Source of the DNA: a phage
Reading direction: 5' to 3' (one strand)
Length of the DNA: 64,000 bases
Sequence record: PV730300.1
Positions 20,063 to 37,184 of the stretch are shown in pieces; position 1 is the stretch's first letter; every line of letters starts with the position of its first letter. Position numbers and translations under genes: made by a program. The notes below the pieces were generated by a model. The model was not told the DNA's origin, searched no databases, and was given only the letters and a program-made list of their open reading frames with translations.

Positions 20063-20107
20063 CACAGAAACAATACTATAGGATAGTGATCCTATCGTAG
20101 CAATAGA

Positions 20108-20746: not shown

Positions 20747-20760
20747 GGGGCCGAAGCCCC
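20747..20760 (-). other. conserved intercistronic hairpin GGGGCCGAAGCCCC (copy 1 of 3)
   Basis: Identical 14-nt palindromic hairpin also at 32853 and 37139. Confidence 0.5.
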
Positions 20761-20769
20761 TTGAGTGGT

Positions 20770-21585
20770 TTATTTGTTTAAGTGGTCTTCGACCATTTTA
20801 ATGAAACCTTCATTGCTGAAGGCTGTTGCAGCTTTTTCTCGGTAAACAAAAACTCCACGATCTTCATAGAGAAGTGTTTCTTCGTAATTAACTCCAGGGT
20901 TAACTACAACCATTTTTGTACCCATACTAAGCGCAGGGAATAATTCCCAATTAAAATTGATAACTTGGTTTGAACATCCTACTACTACAACCAAATCTTG
21001 CATGGTCAAAGTATCGAACAAGTGAGCCATATCTGCATACAAAGGTGCAGCCTCACCAAAAAATACAACATTAGGCTTCACCCAGTTATAATCATCTATG
21101 TTTATACTATTGTAACCAATATCTACCAGTGTTTTGTAATCTCCAGGATGCATACGGTAAACTACTTCAGGGAGATATCCGTGCACGTGAATAACAGAAT
21201 CTCTGTCTACACCTGCTCGCTCTAGTAGATCATCAACGTTTGTTGTCAAGTTTACTATTTGGTTAGGATATTCCTTAAACCATTTTGCTATTTGAATATG
21301 TGCAGCATTAGGTTGTACATCTTTAAGTTCAACACGCCTTTTGTTATAAAATTCGTGTGTTTTGGCATACAAATCCATACCGTTCTCGTCTACACCACCG
21401 ACCACCGGAAGATCTGGAGATGTTCTAACACGATAACCTGCCTGGAAAGCTCCAATATCGCAGACCTCTTCTAAATCATATTCTTCCCATAAGGCACGAC
21501 CACTATCGGTGTCTGTTCGGAATGTTCTAATCCCACTATCTGCACTTAAACCTGCACCGCTTACAAAAATCACTCGTCTTGGCAT
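20770..21585 (-). CDS. Sir2-family (sirtuin-like, NAD-binding) protein lacking the zinc ribbon
   Basis: GAGLSADSGIRTFR, NVDDLLERAG, HVHG, VVVVGCS motifs; no CxxC pairs; RBS GAGGAGG. Confidence 0.7.
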   Translation of the reverse strand: MPRRVIFVSGAGLSADSGIRTFRTDTDSGRALWEEYDLEEVCDIGAFQAGYRVRTSPDLPVVGGVDENGMDLYAKTHEFYNKRRVELKDVQPNAAHIQIAKWFKEYPNQIVNLTTNVDDLLERAGVDRDSVIHVHGYLPEVVYRMHPGDYKTLVDIGYNSINIDDYNWVKPNVVFFGEAAPLYADMAHLFDTLTMQDLVVVVGCSNQVINFNWELFPALSMGTKMVVVNPGVNYEETLLYEDRGVFVYREKAATAFSNEGFIKMVEDHLNK

Positions 21586-22073
21586 TCTTCCTCCTCATAA
21601 TCATCATAATCTTCGTCATCCAAATCGTACACTTCATCTTGAGAATAACTCACTTCAAAGTAAATATCAAACTCCGCAAACAAACGTAGAATGTTGGACA
21701 TGCTATAATAAGTATCGTAGGCAGATTCAGCTTCATAGTAAACATAAAGCAAATGGTTAGCCTTATCATCTTCCAAATATTTCCCGTCTGCATACGCATA
21801 GTCTGCATATGCTTTACCTGCATCTTCCACAAGAGAACGATCAAGCAGAGTAGGAAACGGTTTCTCTTTTTCTTTTAGTTTGCTCACCAACCAGTGTGCA
21901 ATATCATGCCAATCTGCATCCTCTCCGCTGAAGCAGCTTGCAACTTCGCCAAACTTGGCATCTCCTAAGTCCCCGCTGATAGTGATCATGGTTGAACTAT
22001 TGTAACCACAAGTTTCGCAATTTGAACAACTGTTGTGCACATGAATTTCTACTTGAAACATATTTCCTCCCAT
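21570..22073 (-). CDS. hypothetical protein with N-terminal Cys cluster and polyacidic C-terminal tail
   Basis: ORF track; CSNCETCG; C-terminus DLDDEDYDDYEEEECQDE. Confidence 0.5.
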   Translation of the reverse strand: MGGNMFQVEIHVHNSCSNCETCGYNSSTMITISGDLGDAKFGEVASCFSGEDADWHDIAHWLVSKLKEKEKPFPTLLDRSLVEDAGKAYADYAYADGKYLEDDKANHLLYVYYEAESAYDTYYSMSNILRLFAEFDIYFEVSYSQDEVYDLDDEDYDDYEEEECQDE

Positions 22074-22119
22074 AAAAGAAAAGCCCCCTGAAACAGGAGG
22101 CTTTGTTCAGATGCTGGCA

Positions 22120-22773
22120 CTATACCAGACTTTGTAGGTATTTGTCAAGGGCTTCTTGATCTCCTTGACAAACATAGCAACGGAAGTCTTGAGCCGAAGG
22201 TTGTTTATTTTCATCCCAGTCCCAATAAACATTACCCTTATAACGTGAACCAGGAAACTCAAAAGAGGCTGTATGTGTAATGTATCCTGGGCCACCAGTG
22301 AAATCACAGAATGAGAATTGGGGGTATGCCGCCTTTACTGCCTCAATAAACCAAGCTTTACGATCTAAAGCTTCATTGATGCTATATGCATGTCTCTCCA
22401 TTTCTTCCCACGTTTTCCAGACACTTCTTTCATCAGGAGAAAAGACAAGCCATTCTGGAAGGTAGAGAGTGTCATAGTAATCATCATATTCGATCTCGGA
22501 GGCGCACGAAGCTGACTCCTCCAGTTTTGAGTAATCAAAAGCAGAATATACCCACCAACCATCTTCCAGTAAGGCTTTGACAGGGACGAAGCCTTTATCA
22601 GCATATTGATCGAATTGTTTGACACGGTGGCTTGTGCAGTCTTCAAACTCACATTCTAAACGATATGCACCTTTTCGACGAGCCTCAAGACCGTGTGTAC
22701 TGAAAATAACAACACTTCCTTCACCATCATTACGATCTACTTGATAAGCAACTACTGGTTTTGAATTTGACAT
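22120..22773 (-). CDS. hypothetical protein (217 aa)
   Basis: ORF track. Confidence 0.5.
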   Translation of the reverse strand: MSNSKPVVAYQVDRNDGEGSVVIFSTHGLEARRKGAYRLECEFEDCTSHRVKQFDQYADKGFVPVKALLEDGWWVYSAFDYSKLEESASCASEIEYDDYYDTLYLPEWLVFSPDERSVWKTWEEMERHAYSINEALDRKAWFIEAVKAAYPQFSFCDFTGGPGYITHTASFEFPGSRYKGNVYWDWDENKQPSAQDFRCYVCQGDQEALDKYLQSLV

Positions 22774-23456
22774 TATTTCTCCTTATCTAGAAGATTGTTA
22801 GACAAAAACACGGCACGAGCAAAACCACGAGCGGTTAGGGATCTAAGTTGTTTTGTTTTTGCACTAGCTCCACCTAAGCTTTTCCAACCCCAGAAGCAGC
22901 CTATATGATCTACTGGTTTCTTCACTGGTTGAACAAAACCATTGCCGTGCCAAATACAAGTTTTCTTTGTATACCCATCACGGGTAGGCATTTTAGGATG
23001 AAAGCTTCCTTCCTCTTCAAACAAATACCCACCATATTCATAAGGATCAAAGTAAAAATCGGGTTTACGCCATAAGGTTGAAAGTTTACCTACTGGGTTC
23101 TCAATCATCCAAGGAACATTATATTTGTTACCCAAAGCTTCCACTACACGAATATTAGCTAAAGCTTCATCTAATTCCTCTGTGCTACGTTCGTGTTTGC
23201 TACCACTACCTGCTAACATAGTGCAAGGTGGAAATCCAAAAATAATATCGGGTTTAGGTATCCCATGATCTTCAGGGTTGAATGTAGAATCTATCCAGGC
23301 ATTCACATAGGTTATGTTTGGGTGCTCCATCCTAACCTCGTATTTACCGTGGTCCCCTTCGTCAGCGTTCACACAAAAACACTTGTGACCTGCTTCGGCA
23401 TAACGTAACACCATGATCCCAGATCCGTCAAACATAGACAAAACTGTTTTACTCAT
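22773..23456 (-). CDS. cytosine-C5 methyltransferase-like protein (compact, no target-recognition domain)
   Basis: LSMFDGSG (motif I-like), FGFPPCT (PC motif IV-like), IENPVG (ENV-like motif VI); ATG at 23456 after GGAGGGG. Confidence 0.5.
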   Translation of the reverse strand: MSKTVLSMFDGSGIMVLRYAEAGHKCFCVNADEGDHGKYEVRMEHPNITYVNAWIDSTFNPEDHGIPKPDIIFGFPPCTMLAGSGSKHERSTEELDEALANIRVVEALGNKYNVPWMIENPVGKLSTLWRKPDFYFDPYEYGGYLFEEEGSFHPKMPTRDGYTKKTCIWHGNGFVQPVKKPVDHIGCFWGWKSLGGASAKTKQLRSLTARGFARAVFLSNNLLDKEK

Positions 23457-23862
23457 TACCCCTCCATTTAAGACAAGCCATAACTTTACGCCAATCACTT
23501 TCTGTAAGAAAAATCTCGTTTGCTTTCTTCCACAAATCTAAATCGTGAAGGGTTGGAATACGATATGTTAGTTCACAGAATCTATGCTCTTCTTCTGTAA
23601 TATAACCAAAATGCAGAGCCACATCGTGAAACCAACACCAACCATGCATCTCTCGAACAACATGGTCATGCTGAGACATTGTTTTATGCCGTAAACCTAA
23701 CCAACAAGGAACAGATACTTTAGTAGTCTTTAATCTGTGATTAACAGTATTAGAGTATTCAATAATAGCTGTCAGTTTCAATCGTGCTTTTTCTAAATCC
23801 TCATGGGTCACTTTGAAATAACTTTCTGAAAGATATCCACACATATTAATAACCTCCTTCAA
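23449..23862 (-). CDS. hypothetical His-rich protein
   Basis: ORF track. Confidence 0.45.
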   Translation of the reverse strand: MKEVINMCGYLSESYFKVTHEDLEKARLKLTAIIEYSNTVNHRLKTTKVSVPCWLGLRHKTMSQHDHVVREMHGWCWFHDVALHFGYITEEEHRFCELTYRIPTLHDLDLWKKANEIFLTESDWRKVMACLKWRGNE

Positions 23863-24787
23863 AAGGCTTAACTACATGTTGATTAGCTTTAAAACGTTCA
23901 ACATAGTCGTTTTCACCCATGTTTTCATATAGCTTAGTAACAACATAAAAGTTTTCCCAAGCATACTCCCTAAACCAACCACTAGTGATGGATGTGCAGA
24001 CTTTAGATAAAGCCATTATAAAACTTTGCTTAGGGGTTGGACCTCCGATCTCTCCACCGAAAGGAATTTGTGAACGTTCCAAAGCCAAAACACACGCTTC
24101 TTCATAAACACCTAATAGGCGCACATGTTTTGGTTGAGCAAAAAACTTTTCTTTGCTGGTCATAACTTCACTTCCATCTTTCATATAAGATTTATATGCT
24201 GGAGCATCCATTACCGCGATTGCTTCATGGATAGAATCATGATCATAAACATACGGAACCTCATCACCTTTAAAGAAGTCTTTACTTTTTACGTTTAAGT
24301 TTGGATGAGAGTAAGTGTATGTTTCTTTCTCACGCAACTCATAAATACTCTTAAGATTTTCTGGGATCTTTGCGCCCAGTGACCGCATGAAATGAATATC
24401 TTTCATAGTTTTAAAGAAGTGAGGACTATCCTTTTTAAAACGATGACTCATTTTAAGAAGGTAGAGCACATCTAAAGGAGCAACAACATGTCCAGCGTAA
24501 GTTCGACGAACATCCTCAGAATCTTCACAATAACTAATCAAAGCTTCTGTGCTATCTCCTTGAGAAGCAATATCGTATTCCAAATGTGCACCAGCTATCA
24601 TTTTGACATGGCCTTTGTTCCCTTTACGTTCTACAAGTTCAACAAACTCATCTTGAGAGAACATTTTTGATAATTCTTCCCACTCTTGTTCTGTACACAG
24701 GTAATCTAAATCTACACAAGGGCGATACAAGTCTTTTCCCATGTCCATAGCATGAATTTGCAATGCACGGCTACCAATTAACACCAT
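23846..24787 (-). CDS. putative nucleotidyltransferase-fold protein
   Basis: N-terminal IGSRA...VDLDYL resembles GS...DxD NTase signature; tentative. Confidence 0.35.
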   Translation of the reverse strand: MVLIGSRALQIHAMDMGKDLYRPCVDLDYLCTEQEWEELSKMFSQDEFVELVERKGNKGHVKMIAGAHLEYDIASQGDSTEALISYCEDSEDVRRTYAGHVVAPLDVLYLLKMSHRFKKDSPHFFKTMKDIHFMRSLGAKIPENLKSIYELREKETYTYSHPNLNVKSKDFFKGDEVPYVYDHDSIHEAIAVMDAPAYKSYMKDGSEVMTSKEKFFAQPKHVRLLGVYEEACVLALERSQIPFGGEIGGPTPKQSFIMALSKVCTSITSGWFREYAWENFYVVTKLYENMGENDYVERFKANQHVVKPFEGGY

Positions 24788-24851
24788 AATATTTCTCCTC
24801 TATTGGTTGATAGGTTAAGTTTATCAAGCTTCCAGATTCCTGTCAATAAAA

Positions 24852-24872
24852 AACCCGCCGAAGCGGGTTATT
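24852..24872 (-). terminator. rho-independent terminator (ACCCGC-TTCG-GCGGGT + T-run)
   Basis: Same hairpin sequence as 20108 terminator, here oriented for the minus strand. Confidence 0.5.
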
Positions 24873-24877
24873 ATTTA

Positions 24878-25150
24878 CTAACACATTGAGGAAGAAGAGA
24901 TCCAAACACCTCTTGTGGTTAAACCATTTTCATCCAACTCTACACCATAATCTTCACAAATGAAATCAATATAGTGATCTGCGGCTGACGTTCCTGTAGG
25001 GTAATAAGTTTCTCCGTTACCGTAGTCACCTATCCAAGCTTGTTCCTGAAACTGTTCACAAAGTTCTTCAATCTCCTTACGAAACTTTCTTTGTGCTTGT
25101 TCCATCTCTTTAACTTTCTTTTTTATCAGCAGTTCGCCTTCAGACTCCAC
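24878..25150 (-). CDS. small acidic protein, W-x-SSS-C C-terminal family (member 1)
   Basis: C-terminus GVWISSSSMC; helical N-terminus. Confidence 0.5.
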   Translation of the reverse strand: MESEGELLIKKKVKEMEQAQRKFRKEIEELCEQFQEQAWIGDYGNGETYYPTGTSAADHYIDFICEDYGVELDENGLTTRGVWISSSSMC

Positions 25151-25159
25151 AATCTCTCC

Positions 25160-25378
25160 TTAACAGCTACTACTGTGCCAAACGCCTTGAGAATTAACGA
25201 CGAAACCATCATCACCTTCGCCATAACAAGAAGAGGATTGCCAATCTTCAAAACAGATTGCGTCATTTTCTAAACTAAGACCAAAACCAGCATCTTCAGC
25301 TTCTTTTGTAAGTTCGTCCACTAAAGCCATAATAGCTTGGGCTTTTTCAGTTAATTCTTCAACATTACGATCACTCAT
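25160..25378 (-). CDS. small acidic protein, W-x-SSS-C C-terminal family (member 2)
   Basis: C-terminus GVWHSSSC plus internal EDWQSSSC; start at MSDRNV (TAATG overlap). Confidence 0.5.
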   Translation of the reverse strand: MSDRNVEELTEKAQAIMALVDELTKEAEDAGFGLSLENDAICFEDWQSSSCYGEGDDGFVVNSQGVWHSSSC

Positions 25379-25692
25379 TAGTATTTCTCCTCTGGTTGGA
25401 AAACTGAACGACAAGCCCACATACTAGCTTCTTTTAAATGTTTAATAGCACAACGGATTTGATCAATACGTTCGTATGCAAGATCTAATTCTTTTTCTGT
25501 GCCGTCAAAAGACCCATGATATGCTTCACAATACTCTTCCTCTAAAGCTTTGAAGATTAAACCTAAACGCTCTTCTGCATCTTTAATAGCGTTAACCTTG
25601 CCAATCTTATCGTCAGTATGCGCCTTATAACCTTTGATATCTTCGATTCCCACTTTACCCCCTATTAACAACTTAAAGAAGATGGATGCCAA
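25378..25692 (-). CDS. hypothetical protein
   Basis: ORF track; start uncertain. Confidence 0.4.
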   Translation of the reverse strand: MASIFFKLLIGGKVGIEDIKGYKAHTDDKIGKVNAIKDAEERLGLIFKALEEEYCEAYHGSFDGTEKELDLAYERIDQIRCAIKHLKEASMWACRSVFQPEEKY

Positions 25693-25862
25693 TTTGTCCC
25701 AGTATTCTCATTTTCATCTTCTGGATCATAATAACCACCCATCCCATATTCAGGGGAGAAACGGAAACCTTTACCAGTCTCATCTGCTAACTGCTCTGCT
25801 TCCGCTAAAGCCTCATAAGCTGCTTTTACGGCTTCTTCTACTGTTTTAAACTTGGTCGTCAT
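25665..25862 (-). CDS. small acidic protein, W-x-SSS-C C-terminal family (member 3)
   Basis: C-terminus TNWHPSSLSC. Confidence 0.5.
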   Translation of the reverse strand: MTTKFKTVEEAVKAAYEALAEAEQLADETGKGFRFSPEYGMGGYYDPEDENENTGTNWHPSSLSC

Positions 25863-26136
25863 AAAATTTCTCCTCTCCTAAAGACATGTTGACATGAAAT
25901 GCACGATATGTAAATTCGTTGTCCGTTGTGTTTGAATAAAACTCAAATTGAACAACACCGTCTTGAGAAGACAGATACATGCCAATTTGAACTGTTCCTT
26001 CTGGTACCAGGTAAGCATACTCTGGACGTAGTGTTACATTGTAAAAATAAAGTTCCCCAACACCCATTTCATCCCAAGCTTCCCAAGCGGTAACGAAGTT
26101 ACTTTCAAAACTTGTTACTGATCCGAACTCTGCCAT
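25846..26136 (-). CDS. hypothetical protein
   Basis: ORF track. Confidence 0.45.
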   Translation of the reverse strand: MAEFGSVTSFESNFVTAWEAWDEMGVGELYFYNVTLRPEYAYLVPEGTVQIGMYLSSQDGVVQFEFYSNTTDNEFTYRAFHVNMSLGEEKFYDDQV

Positions 26137-26627
26137 AAAACCTCCTCAATCTTGTAGTTTGACTCCATCTCCAACACATTTCCACGAACGTCTCTCCGAA
26201 GAAAGGCATAAGCTTTATTAGGTATTGTAGACTCATATTTAACCATATCTGGCACAGCAAAAGATACTACTACTCCTGCTGGGCTTCTGTCAAGAGCCTT
26301 ATTAATATTTCTAAGGATATCGTTAGCCAAGATTTCTGCCAATTCTCCAAGAACAGTTTCGGTTATATCTTTATATCCCATTAAGTATTTGTTGATATCT
26401 TTCATCTCTGTATTGTTCAGAGTATAGTCCAAAGGATAGAAATTCAAAGCGGAGTCACTTTTATGTGTCCACATGAAATGCACCCGATCAGAGCAGAATC
26501 GTAACCCTCTGTGAAGAATATCTTCTACAACAGGGAGAATTTCTTTTGTTACATCATTAACCATGTTGTAATCTAAGATTTCTGCCAAGTTTGTTCTTTG
26601 TTCACCACGTTTACGTTTAGGAATCAC
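26115..26627 (-). CDS. hypothetical protein (170 aa)
   Basis: ORF track. Confidence 0.45.
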   Translation of the reverse strand: MIPKRKRGEQRTNLAEILDYNMVNDVTKEILPVVEDILHRGLRFCSDRVHFMWTHKSDSALNFYPLDYTLNNTEMKDINKYLMGYKDITETVLGELAEILANDILRNINKALDRSPAGVVVSFAVPDMVKYESTIPNKAYAFLRRDVRGNVLEMESNYKIEEVLWQSSDQ

Positions 26628-27198
26628 TTGTTATTGCCCTCATTACCAAAGGTCGTAGAAAATCGTAAATCTCTTGTTTTGTTTTCCCACGAATGTTTAA
26701 ACAAGGAACATTATTGGCTTTAGCTATCTTCCAAGCCGTAGCTGTTCCACCTTTTGCATCTCCATGTTTATCAGCATTAGCACAAGCCAACAAGAAACAT
26801 GATGGAGCAGGATTCTCCAAATCTCTACCTAACACTTGATGCACATTACGTTGGTGCAATTTTCTAGCACCCTGCTTAAGCTTTTCATAGGCTGGGTGAA
26901 CATCTTTGATCCATTGCACAGAGATAGCATAGTTCATTGTATCTGGTTTTGCAAGAACAATAACATCCCCTGGAATCTGATTACCTTTGAAATTTTCCCA
27001 AGGAACATAAATCTCCTTGTTAGTAGGATTTTCAGACTCTTGGACACCTGTTTCAAAAGCAGAATCACTACCCTCTGCCTTCCCAGACCTTAATTTAAAC
27101 CCAAGGTTTGAAAGCCATTTCCCTATGCCTACCATCAAAGCCCACTCTTCTTCGGATATGTCTCTACTTCCAACTCCCGTATAGAACAGTTCTGCCAT
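26617..27198 (-). CDS. DprA/Smf-like (SLOG superfamily) Rossmann-fold protein
   Basis: GVGSR...SGKAEGSDSA motif pattern; start at MAELFYTG after GAGGTG. Confidence 0.45.
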   Translation of the reverse strand: MAELFYTGVGSRDISEEEWALMVGIGKWLSNLGFKLRSGKAEGSDSAFETGVQESENPTNKEIYVPWENFKGNQIPGDVIVLAKPDTMNYAISVQWIKDVHPAYEKLKQGARKLHQRNVHQVLGRDLENPAPSCFLLACANADKHGDAKGGTATAWKIAKANNVPCLNIRGKTKQEIYDFLRPLVMRAITSDS

Positions 27199-27205
27199 AA
27201 TCACC

Positions 27206-27514
27206 TCAACAAGTAATTTCAAAAGGTGTATACGGTTCCGTATTTCTCATGATCCAAGGACTGCTAGGATTGCTCGGATCATAAGGACCAAAAGGTTTTA
27301 TGGTAGGTTGTGTTTCTTTCTTCTGAATCTCTTCAAAAATACGACGAAGTTCAGAATATTCTTGATCCACCATAAGATTCGGTGCATCTGATTCTACAGC
27401 TTGTAGGTTATTTTCCTTAAAAACAACCTCACGAACAAGATTAACATCCTCTGTTTCTAAGATAACTTCTTTACGGATATTACCTACACTTTGAATAATT
27501 GTAATCTTATACAT
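27206..27514 (-). CDS. hypothetical protein
   Basis: ORF track. Confidence 0.45.
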   Translation of the reverse strand: MYKITIIQSVGNIRKEVILETEDVNLVREVVFKENNLQAVESDAPNLMVDQEYSELRRIFEEIQKKETQPTIKPFGPYDPSNPSSPWIMRNTEPYTPFEITC

Positions 27515-28257
27515 TAATCCTCCTCAAGAGTTGAATAAAATTGAAGACCACCGTCCATATCGAAATAAGCAAATGTTAAGTTATTATTGAACACAGATCC
27601 AGTATCCATATAAACACGATTCGCATTGATAATAGGTGTTTTTACATAAGAGTGTCCATGAAACACATAATCCACACCCATCACAACAGGAAGTTTCATT
27701 CCCTCTTTAGCACAATCCACCATATCTCTGTCCCACATAAGTGCTTCAGCAAAACGGTTTTCCTGTGTTTTTGTCATCTTCAAAATGTATTCTGGAATAT
27801 CTGTTACAGGGAGATATTCCAAAGAAGATGGATACCCACCATGAATAAACGCAAGTTTCATGCCTCTGTAGTTAACAATGAGAACAACAGGTAAATCTTC
27901 TGTCATCATTGCTAAGGCTGTAGCTCCTTCTTCACCACATTCTTCAAGGACCGTATATCCTCCATTTTGATACCAACACTCGAAGTAGCTACGATCTCCT
28001 TCCAGCATACCTTTAATCATCATGTCTTCATGATTTCCACGAATAGCATAGCGATGGTGTTTACGAGTAAATTCTAAAACACAACGAAAGTTTTGCTTTC
28101 CACGGTCAGTAAGATCTCCTAAAGATACAACTACATCTGTATCTCGGATACCTAACTTTGCCTTTCCTTTTTCATACAAATTATAACAACCGTGTAGATC
28201 TCCGATTATAAAAAGATCTTGATCGCTTTTAACAGTAATTTCTCTGTGTATGATCAC
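27514..28257 (-). CDS. Ser/Thr protein phosphatase (lambda-phosphatase-like metallophosphatase)
   Basis: GDLHGC, GDLTDRG, GNHE, GHS motifs. Confidence 0.7.
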   Translation of the reverse strand: MIIHREITVKSDQDLFIIGDLHGCYNLYEKGKAKLGIRDTDVVVSLGDLTDRGKQNFRCVLEFTRKHHRYAIRGNHEDMMIKGMLEGDRSYFECWYQNGGYTVLEECGEEGATALAMMTEDLPVVLIVNYRGMKLAFIHGGYPSSLEYLPVTDIPEYILKMTKTQENRFAEALMWDRDMVDCAKEGMKLPVVMGVDYVFHGHSYVKTPIINANRVYMDTGSVFNNNLTFAYFDMDGGLQFYSTLEED

Positions 28258-28583
28258 TTATCCTCCTCAAAATCTAAGAAAATAAAAATATTCACCTTTC
28301 CTTCAATCTCTTGTTCTAAAACAAGATCGGCAAATTCTGCATAAGCTTTCTCTTCAACTTTTTCAATATGTTCTGCGGCATCTTTAAAAGGCGTATCCCC
28401 ATCCACCTTTACTAATAAGAAAAGAGATCGCATTTCGACGTTTTTACTGTTACGAGGAAGGAAATCTACAGCTTCAACAATTCTCCAACCCAAATAGCCA
28501 GGGGTTTTATGAATCTCCCCTAAATACTTTTCTAAGATTTTACGACCCTCGTCGATAAGGGCTTGTTCTGTAGTAATTTCCAT
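28254..28583 (-). CDS. hypothetical protein
   Basis: ORF track; ATGA overlap. Confidence 0.45.
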   Translation of the reverse strand: MEITTEQALIDEGRKILEKYLGEIHKTPGYLGWRIVEAVDFLPRNSKNVEMRSLFLLVKVDGDTPFKDAAEHIEKVEEKAYAEFADLVLEQEIEGKVNIFIFLDFEEDK

Positions 28584-28593
28584 TCCTTCCTCC

Positions 28594-29375: not shown

Positions 29376-29421
29376 AATCCCTCCCTAAAAATACTCCCTC
29401 CGAGAAGGGAGTATAAGTATA

Positions 29422-29625: not shown

Positions 29626-29861
29626 TAGTCTTCCCAGTCATTGTCCTCGGTAGAGTGAACCAAAGCTCGCACGATGCCGCCATAATCTACTGCTTGGTTT
29701 GCAGCATGTTCGGCATAAACTTCAATGGCTTTTTTGAAGAAAAGAGCAGTAGCTGCTTCAATATTATCCATTTCGCCATCTACGTCAGTAGAAAGTGAAA
29801 GGTTGAGGCTTTCATCTACTTCATCAAAATCAATAGCCACTGTCATAATTAGTTTACCCAT
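29625..29861 (-). CDS. hypothetical acidic protein
   Basis: ORF track. Confidence 0.4.
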   Translation of the reverse strand: MGKLIMTVAIDFDEVDESLNLSLSTDVDGEMDNIEAATALFFKKAIEVYAEHAANQAVDYGGIVRALVHSTEDNDWED

Positions 29862-29873
29862 AGTTCACACTCC

Positions 29874-30383
29874 TTAAACAAAATAAAATGGTTGAGAGAG
29901 GCCCAAACGATTCTTTGGGTCGTATACATACCAAGCGTATGCTGTCTTATCTGTTCCACCTGCAACAAACGAAGGCCGTTCTGAAAGGACTATAAGGTTT
30001 GTTGGTGGATTCTTTTGATGGAACTCTCGTCGTTTCTTTGACTCCAAGAAGCCCAACCGAAGAAGATAAATACAAACATCCGCCTCTTTTAAGCTCTTTT
30101 CCAAGAACTCCATTGCTAACTTGAATGGAGGATTTGTGATTATAATGTCGGGACGATTTTCCCATTCATGACTAAAATAATCTTTACCTTCTTCAAGTTC
30201 ACAATATTCTGAACCTTCAGGAAAATGGCGATAAATCGCTTCAGCTTCACCTCTGCAAGGTTCTGCAAAAACCCAACCTTCTTCCTTTAGATTTTTGAAA
30301 TCTATAACACTAAACAAACTATTGATTGCTTTTTGCGGTGTCGGATAATAATCGCTCGTTGGGCGATCATAATCTAATGCCAT
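29874..30383 (-). CDS. small amino-methyltransferase-like protein (NPPF motif)
   Basis: FAEPCRGEAE (motif I-like) followed by DIIITNPPF (motif IV); only 169 aa. Confidence 0.4.
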   Translation of the reverse strand: MALDYDRPTSDYYPTPQKAINSLFSVIDFKNLKEEGWVFAEPCRGEAEAIYRHFPEGSEYCELEEGKDYFSHEWENRPDIIITNPPFKLAMEFLEKSLKEADVCIYLLRLGFLESKKRREFHQKNPPTNLIVLSERPSFVAGGTDKTAYAWYVYDPKNRLGLSQPFYFV

Positions 30384-30801
30384 CTAAAATCTCCTCTTTT
30401 GTAATATTATCCAACTCTTTAAAGGATGAAATCTCATTTAATAATCCTATTTGATCAGCCTCTAGAGGATAAGTGTTTTTATCTGTTTTTCTAGACAGAA
30501 TATCTTCAACAAACTTATCAATAGCCAAAGAAGAATCATAAAATTTTAAAAGTTGGTAATCCATAGGAGATATTTTGTCATCTCTTAGAAATATTTCTAA
30601 CATGTTTTCAGGAGTATCGTGGTTTAGTTTATGTTCACCAAAAATATTAACTTCGTAAACATCTTTGCCAAACCAACGTTTTTTCTTTTCAACAGTATAG
30701 GTTTTTGCCACCAGACCATCTAAACAGTTTCTTGCCCTCTTACATGTTTGACGGTAAGAGTGGATAGCGCCTTCAACAAACTTAGCAGGAACTTGTAACA
30801 T
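30367..30801 (-). CDS. hypothetical protein
   Basis: ORF track. Confidence 0.45.
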   Translation of the reverse strand: MLQVPAKFVEGAIHSYRQTCKRARNCLDGLVAKTYTVEKKKRWFGKDVYEVNIFGEHKLNHDTPENMLEIFLRDDKISPMDYQLLKFYDSSLAIDKFVEDILSRKTDKNTYPLEADQIGLLNEISSFKELDNITKEEILDGIRL

Positions 30802-30846
30802 TATTAATCTCCTATGTTTAAGAAATGCCCCCGAAGGGGCAGTTTG

Positions 30847-31539
30847 TTAAATAGCGGTTCCTTCGAAATCCGCCACATTTACGAGATTAATATTTTCAGA
30901 TTTAGAAGTCAAGTTGTTTTCTGCAACAGATTTTTCTTCAGTATCCGCCTCGTTACCTGCCACGTTACGAGGTTCTTCTTCACCGTAGGGATTACCGAAT
31001 TTCAAAAGATTGATCAATTCTTCTTTGGAGAAGTTTTCTAAATCATCATCTGTTAATTCAATAATCTCGTCTTGTTCTTCAATAAATGTTTCACCACCAG
31101 AAAAAGCATCTCGCTTTTTAGCTACTTCCATAGCCTGTTCTGGTGTTGCTCCTGCATCAAGAGCAGCTAAAGCAAAATCTGACCCGCTTCCTACCGCATA
31201 ATATTCTTCATCAATCGGATATGCACGTGTTGGGTTGTTACCTTCATGCAGGAAAATACGTCCGTCTGGATGAACAACAAGTGCAATAAACTCTTCATCT
31301 TCTTTGTCTGGATCAGAGTGAATCATCAAACCAGGGACAGCATCACGTGCTGCTTCGCACTGTAGGTTTTGTTCAAACCATTGAAAGAAAGAAAGCACGG
31401 AGGTCAGACGACCAGCACCACCTACAAGGTAATCTCCAATTTTTCGGACCTTTTTGAAATTAATAGAATCTACACGTCCACCGAAAGTTACCTTACCGTC
31501 ACTCAAAATCTTATTTTTGGTTGCAATAATTGTCGTCAC
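30847..31539 (-). CDS. HslV-like Ntn-hydrolase peptidase with acidic C-terminal extension
   Basis: GTG start then TTIIA (Thr2 nucleophile position), KKVRK, GGAG, AVGSGSDFALAALDAG align to HslV; RBS GAGGAGG. Confidence 0.6.
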   Translation of the reverse strand: MTTIIATKNKILSDGKVTFGGRVDSINFKKVRKIGDYLVGGAGRLTSVLSFFQWFEQNLQCEAARDAVPGLMIHSDPDKEDEEFIALVVHPDGRIFLHEGNNPTRAYPIDEEYYAVGSGSDFALAALDAGATPEQAMEVAKKRDAFSGGETFIEEQDEIIELTDDDLENFSKEELINLLKFGNPYGEEEPRNVAGNEADTEEKSVAENNLTSKSENINLVNVADFEGTAI

Positions 31540-32042
31540 TATTCTTCCTCCTCTGTTAATGTTTTAAGAACCGCTTTCCCGCCATTCACATATTTGCAGA
31601 TGTATTCTATCGCACGTAGTGTCTCTTTGTCAACAAAAATTTGATCAGACGTTGCGAGCGGGTTATTAAGAAGATCACTGCAATCACGAACAAGCAGTGC
31701 TTTCTTATTAAACAAATTACTTAAGAACAGTAACTTCGCCTCTTCTTCTGTTATGTGCAGAAGGCTAGGATCGGAGCCAGCTATTCCTATTATACAATCA
31801 AACAAGCTTTCTTTACTATCAGAAAGTTCTTGAAAATGGTTTAAAAGCCAATCTTCTCCTAGACACCAACATTTAAACATTTCCAGTTTATCTCGGAGGG
31901 TCATATTCTCTAAAGTAAGAGCAATCTCTTTTTCAATATGGTTTACACAAATTTGACGAAATTCGTTAGGTTTTACGAGTCCCGTTTGATAGCACTCATC
32001 TATACCGCTTCTTCCGATAGCTATTGTTGCTACACCCATCAA
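31539..32042 (-). CDS. hypothetical protein (167 aa)
   Basis: ORF track. Confidence 0.45.
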   Translation of the reverse strand: MMGVATIAIGRSGIDECYQTGLVKPNEFRQICVNHIEKEIALTLENMTLRDKLEMFKCWCLGEDWLLNHFQELSDSKESLFDCIIGIAGSDPSLLHITEEEAKLLFLSNLFNKKALLVRDCSDLLNNPLATSDQIFVDKETLRAIEYICKYVNGGKAVLKTLTEEEE

Positions 32043-32074
32043 TCCTCCTTATAAATGGCTTCCCTGCCATGTTA

Positions 32075-32833
32075 TTAAATAAACACTTCAGTAATCAGTT
32101 TAGACAAACGTCCACGTTTATTATCGTCCGTTGTCAGTTCAACGTATCCAATAAAATCTACAATTGGCTCACGAACACCTTCTTCATTTTCTGGATACAA
32201 AAGTTCCAAAATTTGATGCAGACCATTACTACGTTTTTTAATTGCATATGTCTGGCGAACATCGCCTAATACAATAACATGCGTATTAATACCTGCACGT
32301 TCAATAAGAAGTTTAAGTGTTTCTGTTGACATAAGTTGTGCTTCGTCAATAATGACGATTGTATTATCCAGGGTAGCCCCTAACAAATAGTTAGGAATAT
32401 TCAATTCGATCTTACCTGATCCAATATCGTTTTCCAATTTGTTGGCTGTCATGAATTGCTGGAAAATACGTTTTGTAGATTCATAGTGTGCTGCTAGTTT
32501 ATCTGTTTTATCCCCCGACAAGAAACCAATCTGATCATCTCCGACTTCAGTAGGGTTCTTGATAAAAAGTAGTTTACGGAAGTCTCCTGAGCGAAGCATC
32601 TGCAAAGCTTTCCATAAAGCAACAGAGGTTTTACCAGTCCCTGCCGGAGCATTTACAACAGTCAGATCATTCCAAATCATGCTTTGAACAATCTTATTTT
32701 GGTCCCCTTCAGGCATAAATTCATCTAAACGGTAATCGTCATTACCTACCGCTTTTGCTGCATAACGGCTTTCAATCTTTGCTGAATTAGCCAGTTTCTG
32801 CCGTTGTGTTTTAGCTGCGGTTTTATTTCCCAT
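32075..32833 (-). CDS. phoH: PhoH-like ATPase
   Basis: NAPAGTGKT Walker A, VIIDEAQ Walker B-like; ATG at 32833 after AAAGGAG (track start 32884 overlaps lysozyme). Confidence 0.75.
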   Translation of the reverse strand: MGNKTAAKTQRQKLANSAKIESRYAAKAVGNDDYRLDEFMPEGDQNKIVQSMIWNDLTVVNAPAGTGKTSVALWKALQMLRSGDFRKLLFIKNPTEVGDDQIGFLSGDKTDKLAAHYESTKRIFQQFMTANKLENDIGSGKIELNIPNYLLGATLDNTIVIIDEAQLMSTETLKLLIERAGINTHVIVLGDVRQTYAIKKRSNGLHQILELLYPENEEGVREPIVDFIGYVELTTDDNKRGRLSKLITEVFI

Positions 32834-32850
32834 AGTAGCACTCCTTTTAG

Positions 32851-32868
32851 AAGGGGCCGAAGCCCCTT
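32851..32868 (-). other. conserved intercistronic hairpin AAGGGGCCGAAGCCCCTT (copy 2 of 3)
   Basis: Between lysozyme stop and phoH RBS. Confidence 0.5.
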
Positions 32869-32870
32869 TA

Positions 32871-33371
32871 TTAGTTGTAAGCATCTAAAGTTCCAGAAGT
32901 CAGAACTTTAATTACTCGTTCAGCACGGTTTGGCGTCTGGCTATACCATCGGCTTTTACGCATGTTTTTACCTGCTTGAGTATAATATGCATTGCTGATT
33001 AAAGTCAAGCTATTTTGAAACCCTTCAGCACCTTTTAACCCCAACTGGAAAACCATGTTGATTATTCCCAATTTACGAGTATCACTAACCTTATCATAGA
33101 TTGGTGATAAGATAGTACTGTTTTTTATGTCTCTCTTCACTTTTGCAACATCGTCAGCAAAGATTTGACGGGCTTCTTTTTCTGTGATAACTCCATTAGT
33201 CTTACGACCAAGAAGATTATCTAAGATTTGAATAGCCTTTGCTTTATCTTTTATTTTAGTCAGAAGGTGTCCTATGCCGACTGTCCAATAACCAAGATGG
33301 TCTTGATAAACAGTAAGCTTCAGTCCTTCATCGACTCGTAGCATATCAAACTCATCTACTACTTTAGCCAT
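32871..33371 (-). CDS. T4-type lysozyme (endolysin, glycoside hydrolase family 24)
   Basis: DEGLKLTVYQDHLGYWTVGIGHLLTK and RWYSQTPNRAERVI align closely to T4 lysozyme. Confidence 0.85.
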   Translation of the reverse strand: MAKVVDEFDMLRVDEGLKLTVYQDHLGYWTVGIGHLLTKIKDKAKAIQILDNLLGRKTNGVITEKEARQIFADDVAKVKRDIKNSTILSPIYDKVSDTRKLGIINMVFQLGLKGAEGFQNSLTLISNAYYTQAGKNMRKSRWYSQTPNRAERVIKVLTSGTLDAYN

Positions 33372-33533
33372 TTACTTCCTATTCGTCGTCTCCTACTCCG
33401 TGATCCAACTCGTTAAACAACAGATGTTCTGGAGAAGTTTCACGTTTTGGTTTCGTTTTCTTTATGTTGGACTTCAGCTCATTTGCCAAAGCACGAGAAA
33501 AGATCTTACGTTTCTGTTTACTTTTCATAATTG

Positions 33534-33794
33534 TTACTCCGCAATTTGAGCCATGAGATCACGCAGTTCGGTAAAACCGCCTACGTATGTTACCTCCCCG
33601 TTCACTTCAGACAGAATTTGTGGAAATGTGCGTGGAGGAACTCCGGTAAGATCAACAACTGTTTTAGTCATTGATTCTAAATCGTAGTCTTGGTCAAGAC
33701 TTAAATATTCAAACTGTTTATTGCGCATAGTCAATAGTTGTTTTGACATTTCACAAAATTGACAGTTAGGTTTACCAAAAATTACAAATTCCAT
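33534..33794 (-). CDS. glutaredoxin-like protein (NrdH/NrdC-type redoxin)
   Basis: CQFC active-site motif, about 86 aa, adjacent to RNR genes. Confidence 0.6.
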   Translation of the reverse strand: MEFVIFGKPNCQFCEMSKQLLTMRNKQFEYLSLDQDYDLESMTKTVVDLTGVPPRTFPQILSEVNGEVTYVGGFTELRDLMAQIAE

Positions 33795-34636
33795 TACCTC
33801 TCCTTATTAAGTAATACTGCTAAAGACTGTTCAATACCTTTATTTAAATCTGATTTTGTAAGATAGTGACTGGTTACTAGTTGTGACTTCACCGGACGTG
33901 CTGCTGGAGCATTATAGGTTGAAGCTGATACCGCCGATATCTTAACAGGTTCTGGCATCTGTGTCAAGATCTTTTCCGCAAACTCCGCCCAAGAAATAAG
34001 ATGGCTTCCTGCAAAATGGTAAGTCTTAACAGACCTTGACCAACCTGTTTTTAATACTTCAAAAATAGCTTCTGCTAAATCTGGAGCATATGTTGGACAA
34101 GAGAACTGATCAGCAACAATAATAAAATCACGTTGTCCATCATTATAGCGAGACAACATGGTTTTTAGAAAGTTATTTCCAAATTCGCTATATACCGAGG
34201 CTGTTCGAATAATATATGCATTTGGGTTAACTCCTCGCACCATTTTTTCACCAAGTTCTTTCGTATACCCATAATTGTTTATTGGGTTAGGTGTAGTATC
34301 TTCAAAAATAGGATGAGAATAATTAAAAATATAGTCTGTAGAAATATGCACAAAATCAATTTTAAGTTTGCTGCACACTGCCGCAATATTTGCAGGTCCA
34401 TACGCATTAACAGCCAAAGCAGTAGCAAAATCATGTTCTGCTTTATCTACAGCCGTATAAGCAGCGCAGTTAATAACACCGTCTACATAATCTTCAACAA
34501 TAGCGTTTCGCACAGCTTCAAAATTTGTAATATCTACACGTTCTTTAGGATAAATTAAAGATACGTTTGAAGGAACCACTTTACGTAAAGCTTGTCCCAG
34601 TTGTCCATTACCACCCAATACCAGATATGTTAGCAT
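33794..34636 (-). CDS. rmlD: dTDP-4-dehydrorhamnose reductase
   Basis: VLGGNGQLG, AAYTAVDKAE, STDYIF, YGYTK, NNFLKTML, DQFSCPT align to RmlD. Confidence 0.8.
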   Translation of the reverse strand: MLTYLVLGGNGQLGQALRKVVPSNVSLIYPKERVDITNFEAVRNAIVEDYVDGVINCAAYTAVDKAEHDFATALAVNAYGPANIAAVCSKLKIDFVHISTDYIFNYSHPIFEDTTPNPINNYGYTKELGEKMVRGVNPNAYIIRTASVYSEFGNNFLKTMLSRYNDGQRDFIIVADQFSCPTYAPDLAEAIFEVLKTGWSRSVKTYHFAGSHLISWAEFAEKILTQMPEPVKISAVSASTYNAPAARPVKSQLVTSHYLTKSDLNKGIEQSLAVLLNKER

Positions 34637-35196
34637 ACACCCTCACTACGCAACTGTTGAAAAGATTTAGCCATTGCATCTTTTGTTGATAAGATAGGTT
34701 TAAAACCTTCGTCAAAAATCATATCGAAGCCCCAATCGATCCCTATGTCAGGATCATCCCAACGTAAACTTTGTTCGCTAGAAGGGTCGTATGGAGTTGT
34801 GCATTTGTATTCAAAGATAGCGTCCATACTCAAAACTATAAAACCATGTGCCAAACCAGGGGGAAGCCAAAACTGCGTATGGTGTCGTGCACTAAGAACA
34901 ACACCGTCCCAAGCACCGTAAGTTGGACTATCTTTACGTAAATCTACAGCGAAATCCAATACTTCTCCACTTACACAACGAACAAGCTTACCTTGCGGGT
35001 TATTTGTTTGAAAGTGCATTCCTCGCAAAACACCGAAGTTTGATTTAGACATATTATCTTGAACGAAAGTTTGTTTACCAATGATATCTTCGTATTTTTG
35101 TTCATTGTATGTTTCTAAAAAGAAACCACGATCATCTTTATAAACGTCTGGTTTGATAATTACCGCACCTTCAATTTTTGTTTTTTCTACTTTCAT
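34630..35196 (-). CDS. rmlC: dTDP-4-dehydrorhamnose 3,5-epimerase
   Basis: DDRGFFLETYN, FVQDNMSKSNFGVLRGMHFQ, GKLVRCVSGEVLDFAVDLRK align to RmlC. Confidence 0.8.
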   Translation of the reverse strand: MKVEKTKIEGAVIIKPDVYKDDRGFFLETYNEQKYEDIIGKQTFVQDNMSKSNFGVLRGMHFQTNNPQGKLVRCVSGEVLDFAVDLRKDSPTYGAWDGVVLSARHHTQFWLPPGLAHGFIVLSMDAIFEYKCTTPYDPSSEQSLRWDDPDIGIDWGFDMIFDEGFKPILSTKDAMAKSFQQLRSEGVC

Positions 35197-35205
35197 TTTC
35201 TCTCC

Positions 35206-35532
35206 TTACCAGACATGTTGAGAAATAATAGTTTCCGTTTTAATGTTATATTTTTCAAGTAGCTCTGCATAGGCTTCTTTTGCATTCTCATTTACTTTCT
35301 CAAGATCTACAGCTACGCTTCCTTCTCCGCCTTCTAAATAAATACCATATATGCAATAAGACTCATCAGCATCGTAGAAAGGAGAGATGCGACTTAAGTC
35401 AAGACCTTCTTGTAAGAACCAGTTAAAATCTCCGTCAAATTCTTCTTCAATTCTAGGGTCTTCTCCTACAGCCTCTTCCCATTTATTAAAAGGTGCACCC
35501 TGTAACATACGCCATTCGATATCAATACCCAT
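35206..35532 (-). CDS. hypothetical acidic protein
   Basis: ORF track. Confidence 0.45.
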   Translation of the reverse strand: MGIDIEWRMLQGAPFNKWEEAVGEDPRIEEEFDGDFNWFLQEGLDLSRISPFYDADESYCIYGIYLEGGEGSVAVDLEKVNENAKEAYAELLEKYNIKTETIISQHVW

Positions 35533-35707
35533 TTTTCATCTCCTCCTCTTCTTGAGCAGCTTTAATAATTGCTTCATAAATATCGTAAGCAATGCCTCCA
35601 CAACATCTAGCTTCGAAAGCTATTGCTTCTGCAATGTGATCTGTTAATTCTCGTGGAATACGGACATACTCTTTTTCATTCTCCATCTTCCACCTCTTCT
35701 TTTTCAA
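35522..35707 (-). CDS. hypothetical small protein (possible ribbon-helix-helix)
   Basis: ORF track; EYVRIPRELTDHIAEAIA resembles RHH N-terminus. Confidence 0.35.
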   Translation of the reverse strand: MKKKRWKMENEKEYVRIPRELTDHIAEAIAFEARCCGGIAYDIYEAIIKAAQEEEEMKNGY

Positions 35708-35821
35708 AGACTACTACTCGTCCCTCACCATGACAATTCAGGCAAGGAAATGTTACCATAATTTCCACTTCCATCTGTCCAGTCCCACCGCACACAGGAC
35801 AAAAAATAAGTTTTTCAGCCA

Positions 35822-36031
35822 TTATTCCTCCTTAATTATTTCAAACTTGGCAACACCGTTTACAATAATATGACCACAAGACATAACTCCTAGCCAAGGA
35901 TCGCCGTTTTTCTTCGGGCGTTTACCGAATACATCACAAAAACCATTCTTCATTTCGGAGGCTTCATAAGAAGCCCCTTTGTCAAAAACGTCTTTGAATG
36001 TGTCGATTATACCAACACATCTCAAAATCAT
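35822..36031 (-). CDS. hypothetical protein
   Basis: ORF track; ATGA overlap with nrdB stop. Confidence 0.4.
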   Translation of the reverse strand: MILRCVGIIDTFKDVFDKGASYEASEMKNGFCDVFGKRPKKNGDPWLGVMSCGHIIVNGVAKFEIIKEE

Positions 36032-37116
36032 TAGAAGTCAAGCTCCTCATCATCAGAGAGATCTTTGTTAGCTGAATTCAATTTGTAATTAGTTAACTGA
36101 ATCTCTTGGGCTGCTGACTGAATCAAATCAGGATTCAACCATTTTTCCATCCAAGCTAAAGGACTATGTTTAGGTGCTTTAAACTTAGCTTTCATTTTCA
36201 ATCGACGATAAATAGGAGCAGCATTGAAATAAACCCACTGTTTAGACAATTCGGCGTTAAGACCTACAATAAAACGACCTTCACTAAACAGGTAGTCACA
36301 CCACTGTTCCTCTTGTTCAACAACAGTGTCGAGGATCAAAGTCAACTCTTCAATATTGTCTTCGTAAATTTTACGCCAAATTGGGTCATGCATCAATGCA
36401 TCAATTACAGCATAATCCATCTTAACATGCAAGATTTCATCTAACATAATTTTCTGGATCAGTTTACAAGCCCCAACAAACAGTTGTTGTTCTGCCATAG
36501 CAAAAGTAGCAGAGAAGGAAGATATAAACTGAATACCTTCTAATCCAATCAGGGCTACCATCCCTTTAAGAATCAGCAGTCGAAGTTCATCGTTAGCTTC
36601 AATCAATCCTAGAGCATACTTATGACCAGCTTCTTCCAACTGACCCATGATATCAGCAATGATACCCATACGATTGAAAATTTTATCATTAATCATAATC
36701 TGATTGATGACTTCGATTGGATCTGGAGTACATTGACGGATTATTTCAGAATACGTTAACGCATGGAGAACTTCCATTTCACTCTGCTTCATCATCATAG
36801 CACAGGCTTCATTGTTACTCAAGAATGGAGAGAACAAAGTGATGATTGATTTTGCAAGAGAATCATTTTCCCATTGGAACGATAAGTTTTTAATCATAAC
36901 ATCATAGTTGTTTTTAGAACAAGCTACGAAATCTTTACGTGTCTGATCCAGATTGACTTCATTCTCATCCCAATCTTGTGCTTTTTGAAGTTTGTAGAGT
37001 TTGTGCATTTCTGGATAAGTTACGTTAACAGAATCAAAGATCCCTAATTGTTCCCCTAAAAATACTGGATATTTTCCTGTTTTGTAAACTTCATTGTGTA
37101 AATTAATTGCTGCCAT
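36031..37116 (-). CDS. nrdB: ribonucleotide reductase class Ia small subunit
   Basis: Length 361 aa; N-terminus and helical core resemble E. coli NrdB; adjacent to nrdA. Confidence 0.8.
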   Translation of the reverse strand: MAAINLHNEVYKTGKYPVFLGEQLGIFDSVNVTYPEMHKLYKLQKAQDWDENEVNLDQTRKDFVACSKNNYDVMIKNLSFQWENDSLAKSIITLFSPFLSNNEACAMMMKQSEMEVLHALTYSEIIRQCTPDPIEVINQIMINDKIFNRMGIIADIMGQLEEAGHKYALGLIEANDELRLLILKGMVALIGLEGIQFISSFSATFAMAEQQLFVGACKLIQKIMLDEILHVKMDYAVIDALMHDPIWRKIYEDNIEELTLILDTVVEQEEQWCDYLFSEGRFIVGLNAELSKQWVYFNAAPIYRRLKMKAKFKAPKHSPLAWMEKWLNPDLIQSAAQEIQLTNYKLNSANKDLSDDEELDF

Positions 37117-37133
37117 TTAAAATTCTCCTCAAT

Positions 37134-37155
37134 AAAAGGGGGCCGAAGCCCCTTT
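37134..37155 (-). other. conserved intercistronic hairpin AAAGGGGGCCGAAGCCCCTTT (copy 3 of 3)
   Basis: Between nrdA stop and nrdB RBS. Confidence 0.5.
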
Positions 37156-37184
37156 ACGTTTACCCTTCTTCACCTGTTCTCCTA

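Follow-up and report, generated by a model that had tools for sequence, protein, structure and literature searches.

This analysis concerns a 14-nucleotide (nt) hairpin that occurs three times in a 64,000-nt stretch of phage DNA (record PV730300.1; the whole stretch is referred to below as the window), each time between two genes of one long co-oriented block. The three copies, numbered here along the window, are extra-stable C(UUCG)G tetraloop hairpins, the class described by Tuerk in 1988, and in stem, position and orientation they are of the terminator type. Judged from these features, they are probably leaky Rho-independent terminators that step down transcription and cap the upstream messages, a reading to which we assign a probability of about 0.72. 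The anatomy of the sites was read directly, and their mechanism is inferred from it. The hairpin class has been known since 1988, and a sister phage already has terminator annotations for copies 1 and 3; nothing in this is new.

The 14-mer GGGGCCGAAGCCCC matches the plus strand of the window exactly at 20747-20760 (copy 1), 32853-32866 (copy 2) and 37139-37152 (copy 3). The chance expectation was 0.02 matches at up to two mismatches, and the observed count was reached in none of 100 dinucleotide-preserving shuffles, which confirms the identity of the three copies claimed in an earlier reading of the window (the sequence-only reading). That reading had described the hairpin on the non-transcribed strand and had missed its UUCG tetraloop. 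The genes at all three sites lie on the minus strand: their start codons appear on the plus strand as "...cat" preceded by "ctcct", the long open reading frames (ORFs) run in the minus direction, and the annotation of the nearest relative agrees. The transcribed hairpin therefore reads GGGGC-UUCG-GCCCC in all three copies, and not with a CGAA loop. At each site the RNA sense strand has a UUCG loop, a C-G closing pair and a Watson-Crick stem of at least 2 bp, the features by which the C(UUCG)G class was defined here. The conserved AA and TT flanks that had also been claimed lengthen the stem to 7 bp in copies 1 and 2 (AAGGGGC/GCCCCUU); in copy 3 a C follows GCCCC (AAAGGGGC...GCCCC-C-UUUU). On its own the 14-mer had a folding energy of −9.6 kcal/mol, and a 61-nt stretch over copy 1, with the 7-bp stem in its fold, had one of −13.9 kcal/mol. 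The extended stem was present in the minimum free energy fold of both copies 1 and 2.

The window derives from a Phapecoctavirus, a phAPEC8-like myovirus of the Stephanstirmvirinae. Over 8 kb it shares 99.1% identity with Klebsiella phage ZCKP1, and with many E. coli phages the identity is at least 98%. The three hairpins lie inside a minus-strand block of about 70 co-oriented genes, which runs from ~20.45 to ~54.3 kb of the window (~34 kb) and contains nucleotide metabolism, DNA modification and replication accessory genes. The block is thus one of early or metabolic genes.

Copy 1 (minus strand; extended stem 20745-20762) separates the Sir2 gene from a 90-amino-acid (aa) ORF. Its RNA reads AAGGGGC-UUCG-GCCCCUU, then UCUUAUU-AGGAG-AAUAAA-AUG, and the upstream stop codon is 9 nt 5' of the GGGGC core. 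Copy 2 (minus strand) lies between the lysozyme gene and phoH; its RNA is UAA-U-AAAGGGGC-UUCG-GCCCCUU-CUAAAAGGAGUGCUACU-AUG, with the stop codon 4 nt 5' of the core and a poor U-tract (UUCU). Copy 3 (minus strand) lies between nrdA and nrdB, 32 nt past the nrdA stop codon, with the RNA sequence AAAGGGGC-UUCG-GCCCC-C-UUUUAUU-GAGGAG-AAUUUUAA-AUG. Pfam matches agree with the gene names of the sequence-only reading: SIR2 followed by the 90-aa ORF, which has no Pfam match; Phage_lysozyme and PhoH; and the large and small subunits of ribonucleotide reductase. The intergenic spacers measure 43-68 nt, and sequence similarity between the three sites is confined to the hairpin. The distance from hairpin to start codon is 20, 19 and 22 nt for copies 1, 2 and 3, respectively. 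This interval is filled by a U-rich tail and a Shine-Dalgarno (SD) sequence (AGGAG, AAGGAG and GAGGAG, in the same order), and the downstream ribosome-binding site (RBS) begins 6-9 nt past the hairpin. The claimed placement directly upstream of the next RBS, within a long co-oriented block, thus holds with minus-strand genes and a spacing of 19-22 nt.

The sites were compared with the anatomy of an intrinsic terminator. All three have a stable G+C-rich stem-loop on the transcribed strand (five G-C pairs and the UUCG loop), and all three are intergenic, past a stop codon and in sense orientation. The U-tract differs between copies. In copy 1 it is UUUCUUAUU, with 7 of 9 positions U; in copy 3 it is a C followed by UUUUAUU, the counterpart in Escherichia phage Schickermooser and in phi92 being UUUUUAUU; in copy 2 it is UUCUAAAA, which falls short of five T in 9 nt. 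The RefSeq record of Schickermooser (NC_048196) carries the annotation "putative transcriptional terminator, ARNOLD, -13.90" exactly on the orthologs of copies 1 and 3. It also places ARNold terminators on the orthologs of three sister hairpins of the window (at 24852, 29391 and 20107), and omits copy 2 and a sister hairpin at 30826. The ARNold annotation method is that of Korf et al. 2019 (PMC6563267), and 55 terminators have been predicted in the Phapecoctavirus ASO2A (PMC10612097).

Termination at these sites would be partial. The tails of the three copies are weaker than those at block-end and promoter-adjacent sites. The 19-22 nt between hairpin and start codon consist entirely of tail and SD, with no room for a promoter; therefore the 90-aa ORF, phoH and nrdB can be expressed only from read-through RNA. 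In copies 1 and 2 the upstream gene ends 4-9 nt before the hairpin, so ribosomes completing its translation should suppress termination further. In E. coli, a stop codon only a few bp upstream represses terminator tR2 almost completely, and full efficiency is reached only when the distance exceeds ~30 bp, because the terminating ribosome blocks folding of the hairpin (PMC4824070). From tail and spacing, copy 1 is probably a moderate terminator. At copy 3 the first U of the tail is replaced by C in the window genome, a change by which, we infer, termination is weakened there. Little termination is likely at copy 2, which would serve mainly as a stability or insulator hairpin. The sequence-only reading had preferred a stability element or partial attenuator to simple terminators; its leaky side stands, given the weak tails and the absence of promoter room, and the hairpins may also stabilise RNA, but the sites have terminator-type features and copies 1 and 3 are annotated as terminators.

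In the proposed mechanism, the stable 5-7 bp G+C hairpin would fold in the nascent RNA and, with the U-rich tail, would free a fraction of the polymerases, while the remaining ones would continue into the next gene. Terminated or 3'-trimmed RNAs would end in the hairpin, so that the upstream cistron would be shielded from 3' exonucleases. The net effect would be a graded step-down of mRNA along the block together with stabilisation of the upstream message, and no hard operon boundary. More than 60% of the terminators mapped in phage LUZ7 have an efficiency below 50%, with stepwise read-through, and leaky terminators inside operons are the norm in phages (PMC9163698). In E. coli reporters, a lower folding energy at the 3' end correlates with higher expression of the upstream gene (PMC9257418).

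Several points weigh against this reading. Copy 2 has no proper U-tract and no ARNold call, and "terminator" may be the wrong word for it. Rough d'Aubenton-Carafa-type d-scores were +13.8, −11.5 and −9.6 for copies 1, 2 and 3, respectively, compared with +26 to +32 at the block-end and promoter-adjacent sites; built on ViennaRNA energies instead of the original parameter set, these scores are meaningful in their ranking and not in their sign. The GGGGC stem is invariant at the three sites, and covariation is confined to loop swaps and to one sister hairpin. A literature search found no transcriptome or 3'-end data for Phapecoctavirus. Finally, the 3' end of the lysozyme gene contains a sigma-70-like TTGACT-18-TATACT sequence (32979-33008, minus strand), which precedes copy 2 by ~105 nt. 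Its −10 hexamer, including synonymous positions, is kept in all seven lineages compared and its −35 hexamer in six of seven (TTAACT in the relative L010), with TTGACW as the overall pattern. This is a possible internal promoter for phoH, and it could make copy 2 mainly a 5'-leader element.

Orthologous junctions were compared in phi92 (Justusliebigvirus), Klebsiella phage KP13-26 and seven relatives from IMG/VR. The latter were retrieved with a 169-aa methyltransferase-like protein as query, which gave eight loci including one that is unrelated and G+C-rich (L015), a sample that suffices for comparing loops and not for phylogeny. The GGGGC/GCCCC stem and its position are kept at all orthologous junctions examined, and the loops vary. 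At the lysozyme-phoH junction the loop is UUCG in Phapecoctavirus, GCAA in the IMG/VR relative L014, GAAA in the phi92 group and GUAA in the KP13-26 group. At the Sir2 junction the corresponding loops are UUCG, UACG, GAAA and GAAA; at the nrdA junction they are UUCG, UUCG, a UUCG closed by a G·U pair, and GAAA. All alternatives at the three junctions in these relatives are thus UNCG or GNRA tetraloops on the sense strand. Because stem and position are kept while the loops swap among stable tetraloops, selection appears to act on the stability of the RNA hairpin and not on the 14-mer sequence. At the HslV junction, the hairpin has two compensatory stem changes (UGCCCC/GGGGCA versus ACCCCC/GGGGGU; phi92 has ACCCCC-GCAA-GGGGGU). 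These pairs were judged by eye, as the MAFFT alignment set KP13-26 out of register with the stem. KP13-26 lacks the gene that follows Sir2, and there the Sir2 hairpin closes the gene block and has a longer U-run. No lineage compared has a good tail at copy 2, phi92, KP13-26 and L014 included, and the first tail position of copy 3 shows the U-to-C change relative to both Schickermooser and phi92.

The hairpin also recurs far outside this group. The exact 18-mer AAGGGGCTTCGGCCCCTT was found in at least 120 unrelated IMG/VR viral contigs with a G+C content of 21-65%; in every such contig among the matches listed, similarity to the window extends over 100 nt or less. The 123 listed occurrences were sorted by the strand on which an ORF of 60 or more codons terminates no more than 80 nt upstream: the UUCG strand alone in 72, the opposite strand alone in 2, both in 42 and neither in 7. 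At least five T follow within the next 8 nt in 87 of the 123, and 45 of the 123 show a compact hairpin-SD-AUG module, in which an SD and a start codon open an ORF of at least 50 codons within 30 nt downstream. Recurrence in the same context across at least 120 unrelated contigs means that the identity of the three copies needs no special explanation, and the special "reuse" of the hairpin proposed in the sequence-only reading falls away. The hairpin is a near-minimal, near-optimal design that phages have reached repeatedly, with no sign of a mobile or genome-specific element.

The junction that holds copy 3 varies between genomes. A free-standing gene for a 218-aa HNH endonuclease occurs in the nrdA-nrdB spacer of some genomes and not of others (window 37117-37187, minus strand; positions 478-1134 of locus L016 from ETEC-TG, 20321-20977 of L006 from phi92 and 19559-20105 of L001 from ZCKP1). 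ETEC-TG, ESCO5 and phi92 carry the gene, ZCKP1 has a version with an internal deletion, and the window and DE16 retain only a scar of 14 codons; the Schickermooser spacer has neither gene nor scar. In ETEC-TG and phi92 the gene comes after nrdA and before the hairpin. The window and DE16 have lost the part from its codon 8 up to the hairpin, with a 5-nt TAAAG microhomology at the deletion. What is left is a 14-codon remnant ORF (37129..37173, minus strand; GUG-KKGKRKGASAPFY-UGA) with its own SD intact, which spans copy 3, stops inside the nrdB SD and occurs only in genomes of the window/DE16 type. The core of hairpin, tail and SD is kept in every arrangement. In ZCKP1 a 112-aa extra ORF follows the hairpin besides the HNH remnant. 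The placement of an HNH gene between nrdA and nrdB presumably parallels that of mobE in T4.

Two further observations were made at this junction. An ORF of ~110 aa with no annotated function (MSTLIVLPGVTP...) lies between the hairpin and nrdB in ZCKP1 (L001, 19559-19897) and KP13-26 (L007, 20364-20696); it overlaps the nrdB start and is absent from the window. A different hairpin, GAGGGGA-GAAA-UCCCCUU, lies inside the 5' coding region of the HNH gene (codons 12-18) in phi92 (L006, 20359-20376) and ETEC-TG (L016, ~520-537), and may have a regulatory role for this homing endonuclease gene.

The hairpins could alternatively be pure mRNA stability or processing elements, which would release no polymerase and would only block 3' exonucleases or protect the 5' end of a downstream message after processing. 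As an account of all three copies this is unlikely, and it is plausible for copy 2. There the tail, equally poor in phi92, KP13-26 and L014, lacks the T-count and the ARNold call of a terminator, the promoter-like site ~105 nt upstream would put the hairpin in the phoH leader, and a 5' CUUCGG hairpin of T4 has been reported to stabilise gene 32 mRNA (PMC8948821). Copies 1 and 3, on the other hand, combine U-rich tails with terminator calls, the same hairpin closes a gene block in KP13-26, and the listed occurrences of the 18-mer in unrelated phages mostly precede T-runs. The two roles are also compatible.

The hairpins might also be translation-gated attenuators, at which a ribosome finishing the upstream frame would block folding of the hairpin; we hold this only tentatively and think it rather improbable. 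Polymerase would then proceed only if the upstream message is actively translated; transcripts that are untranslated or decoupled would terminate, with the hairpin as a protective cap. The idea comes from geometry, since copies 1 and 2 begin 9 and 4 nt past a stop codon and copy 3 lies within the remnant ORF that ends in the nrdB SD. On this view, too, short-patch gene conversion between the copies may have homogenised the three loops to UUCG in the Phapecoctavirus lineage.

An element acting at the DNA level would explain the identity of the copies by copying; it could be a palindrome bound by a protein, a hot spot of recombination or insertion, or a small mobile repeat that gene conversion has spread. 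The three loops are all UUCG in Phapecoctavirus, while the nearest outgroup, L014, has UACG, GCAA and UUCG, and the change from GCAA to UUCG alters all four loop positions. The nrdA-nrdB junction is polymorphic both for the HNH gene and for another ORF, and one deletion end-point abuts copy 3. Even so, a DNA-level element is very improbable. Orientation strictly follows transcription (8/8 in ZCKP1, and 72 versus 2 among the listed unrelated occurrences), every loop that replaces UUCG at these junctions in the relatives is a tetraloop stable as sense-strand RNA, the copies resemble each other in the hairpin alone, an indel of the rmlA/rmlB genes is not at a hairpin, and the 5-nt TAAAG microhomology accounts for the deletion junction.

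Complete, efficient terminators that divide the block into operons, each with its own promoter, are scarcely credible despite the stable hairpin and U-rich tail of copies 1 and 3 and the conserved promoter that follows the sister hairpin at 24852: the 19-22 nt before the AUG, occupied by tail and SD, exclude the independent downstream promoters that the sequence-only reading had set against its own view, nrdA and nrdB encode subunits of one enzyme, and the sole candidate promoter lies upstream of its hairpin, so its RNA must also read through.

Other candidates were rejected. RNase III substrates have a long double-stranded stem of roughly 20 bp (two turns). A T7-type intercistronic RNase III site was discarded since the stems of 5-7 bp are too short, and the flanking pairings are weak, no better than in shuffles at copies 2 and 3 (z = −1.0 and +0.35). 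A leader-peptide attenuator would need a translated leader ORF and antiterminator and terminator structures that exclude each other; no alternative structure was predicted, the ORF at copy 3 is a deletion scar, and copies 1 and 2 have no leader ORF. Repeats of the repetitive extragenic palindromic (REP) or miniature inverted-repeat transposable element (MITE) kind would share more than the hairpin, and nothing is shared outside it. The hairpins are not general recombination boundaries, as the rmlA/rmlB indel lies away from any hairpin. A mobile cassette of the promoter-early stem-loop (PeSL) type does not fit either, with no promoter in the 43-68 nt spacers and flanking genes that are syntenic across the subfamily except at nrdA-nrdB.

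The search for further copies gave additional members of the class, while the exact 14-mer is limited to its three sites in the window. The window holds six perfect UUCG hairpins and one CUCG hairpin, all oriented with transcription. A window-wide hairpin script, some entries of which describe a site by a larger loop, served for counts and the T-tail test only. The complete ZCKP1 genome holds 52 perfect G+C-rich tetraloop hairpins, in which UUCG is the commonest loop (n = 8). All eight ZCKP1 UUCG hairpins are sense-oriented and intergenic, with none antisense (a CGAA loop in the sense direction), and the UUCG hairpins of the window are likewise all intergenic.

Among the sister hairpins, the one at 24852..24869 (minus strand), AACCCGC-UUCG-GCGGGUU followed by UUUUAUU, is strongly terminator-like. 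A promoter-like TTGACA-17-TAAACT sequence (24846-24818, minus strand) follows directly. Stem-loop and U-run are unchanged throughout the subfamily, and the TTGACA...TAAACT promoter is always next to them. The hairpin at 30826..30841 (minus strand; UGCCCC-UUCG-GGGGCA, then UUUCUU) lies between an HslV-like gene and the next ORF. The one at 29391..29414 (minus strand) is AUACUCCCUU-CUCG-GAGGGAGUAU, then UUUU; its loop is UUCG in Schickermooser and in the IMG/VR relatives L008 and L014. On the plus strand, AACCCGC-UUCG-GCGGGUU, then UUUU, stands at 20107..20124, at the end of the plus-strand gene block. The plus and minus blocks converge, one gene downstream of copy 1, on a bidirectional terminator-like hairpin at 20427..20450, AAAGGCACCC-(AAGU/ACUU)-GGGUGCCUUU.

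Several other hairpins were noted beside these. A ninth copy with the AAGGGGC stem, AAGGGGC-UUCU-GCCCCUU, in which the loop has a G-to-U change, occurs in the ZCKP1 record at 84747-84764 (minus strand; L002), where it separates the DNA polymerase I gene from the ORF that follows, beyond the region covered by the window. A second repeated family, GCGGCA-AUGG-UGCCGC, has nine copies (one with an AUGA loop) at 127052-134379 of that record (L003), mostly after ACGTAGG or a close variant and each in an intergenic gap among tiny, early-looking genes; a look-alike, GGCGGGAAA-AUGG-UUUCCCGCC, is found in the window at 1718-1739. In the plus-strand block, GGGCG-CACAAAG-CGCCC occurs twice (2171-2187 and 2930-2946, plus strand), 759 nt apart and each time followed by a T-run, and is thus another terminator-like hairpin employed twice. 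At 22080-22148 (minus strand), a strong promoter-like TTGACA-18-TATAGT with a TG element (11/12 matches) ends ~15 nt before an 11-bp terminator-like hairpin (22080-22104), so that its transcript would start almost at the hairpin.

A scan of the whole window with Rfam 15 found 11 tRNAs alone above the gathering threshold; the hairpins have no curated family. The tRNA genes (RF00005) are clustered on the plus strand at 55970-57892. The rmlB/rmlA pair, encoding dTDP-glucose 4,6-dehydratase and glucose-1-phosphate thymidylyltransferase, is missing in the window (35197-35205) and in ZCKP1. Schickermooser, ESCO5 and phi92 carry it between a 108-aa ORF and rmlC, and the window retains rmlC and rmlD only.

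The PeSLs of T4-type phages are, like the hairpins here, repeated short intergenic stem-loops in an early block. The sister site at 24852 resembles them in coupling a hairpin to a sigma-70-type promoter. The three copies, in contrast, have no adjacent promoter, flank no variable cassettes except at the copy 3 junction, and share no sequence beyond the hairpin.

A closer parallel is offered by the C(UUCG)G hairpins of T4 (Tuerk et al. 1988 PNAS 85:1364, as related in PMC8948821 and PMC4371310). According to these accounts, T4 and other phages have many CUUCGG hairpins between their genes. They share with the present copies the short G+C stem, the C-G-closed UUCG loop, the mainly intergenic position in a large lytic coliphage, the mRNA sense and the exceptional stability, and the roles related for them are varied: termination, mRNA stabilisation and a block to reverse transcriptase. 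Unlike in T4, the phage here belongs to the Stephanstirmvirinae and not the Tevenvirinae, one stem is used three times, and relatives carry GNRA loops.

With Rho-independent terminators of E. coli and phages, such as lambda tR2, the hairpins have in common a G+C-rich stem-loop, a U-rich 3' tail, a frequent A-tract 5' of the stem and a site just past a stop codon. They differ in stems that are short for such terminators (5-7 bp), in interrupted tails with essentially no U-tract at copy 2, and in a stop codon 4-9 nt away (copies 1 and 2) and an AUG 19-22 nt away. With stop codon and AUG so close, these sites are not expected to terminate efficiently, and efficient termination would conflict with expression of the downstream genes. 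Weak intra-operon terminators mapped in LUZ7 by ONT-cappable-seq, and described also for T7, are likewise hairpins in co-oriented blocks with partial read-through, where they create nested transcription units and tune gene dosage (PMC9163698). Those in LUZ7 were measured, whereas the ones here are deduced from sequence, and host and polymerase context differ.

The significance of these hairpins is small beyond good annotation. Translation gating, if true, would be of modest interest as a natural case in which the distance from stop codon to terminator tunes expression, a principle already established (PMC4824070). The compact hairpin AAGGGGCUUCGGCCCCUU is common to many unrelated phages, often directly before the next RBS, and could serve synthetic operons as a small insulator or stabiliser part. 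In the annotation of phAPEC8-like phages, copy 2 and the hairpin at 30826 merit a place beside the sites already called, and the metabolic block would be described as punctuated by weak terminator-type hairpins and not by hard operon boundaries.

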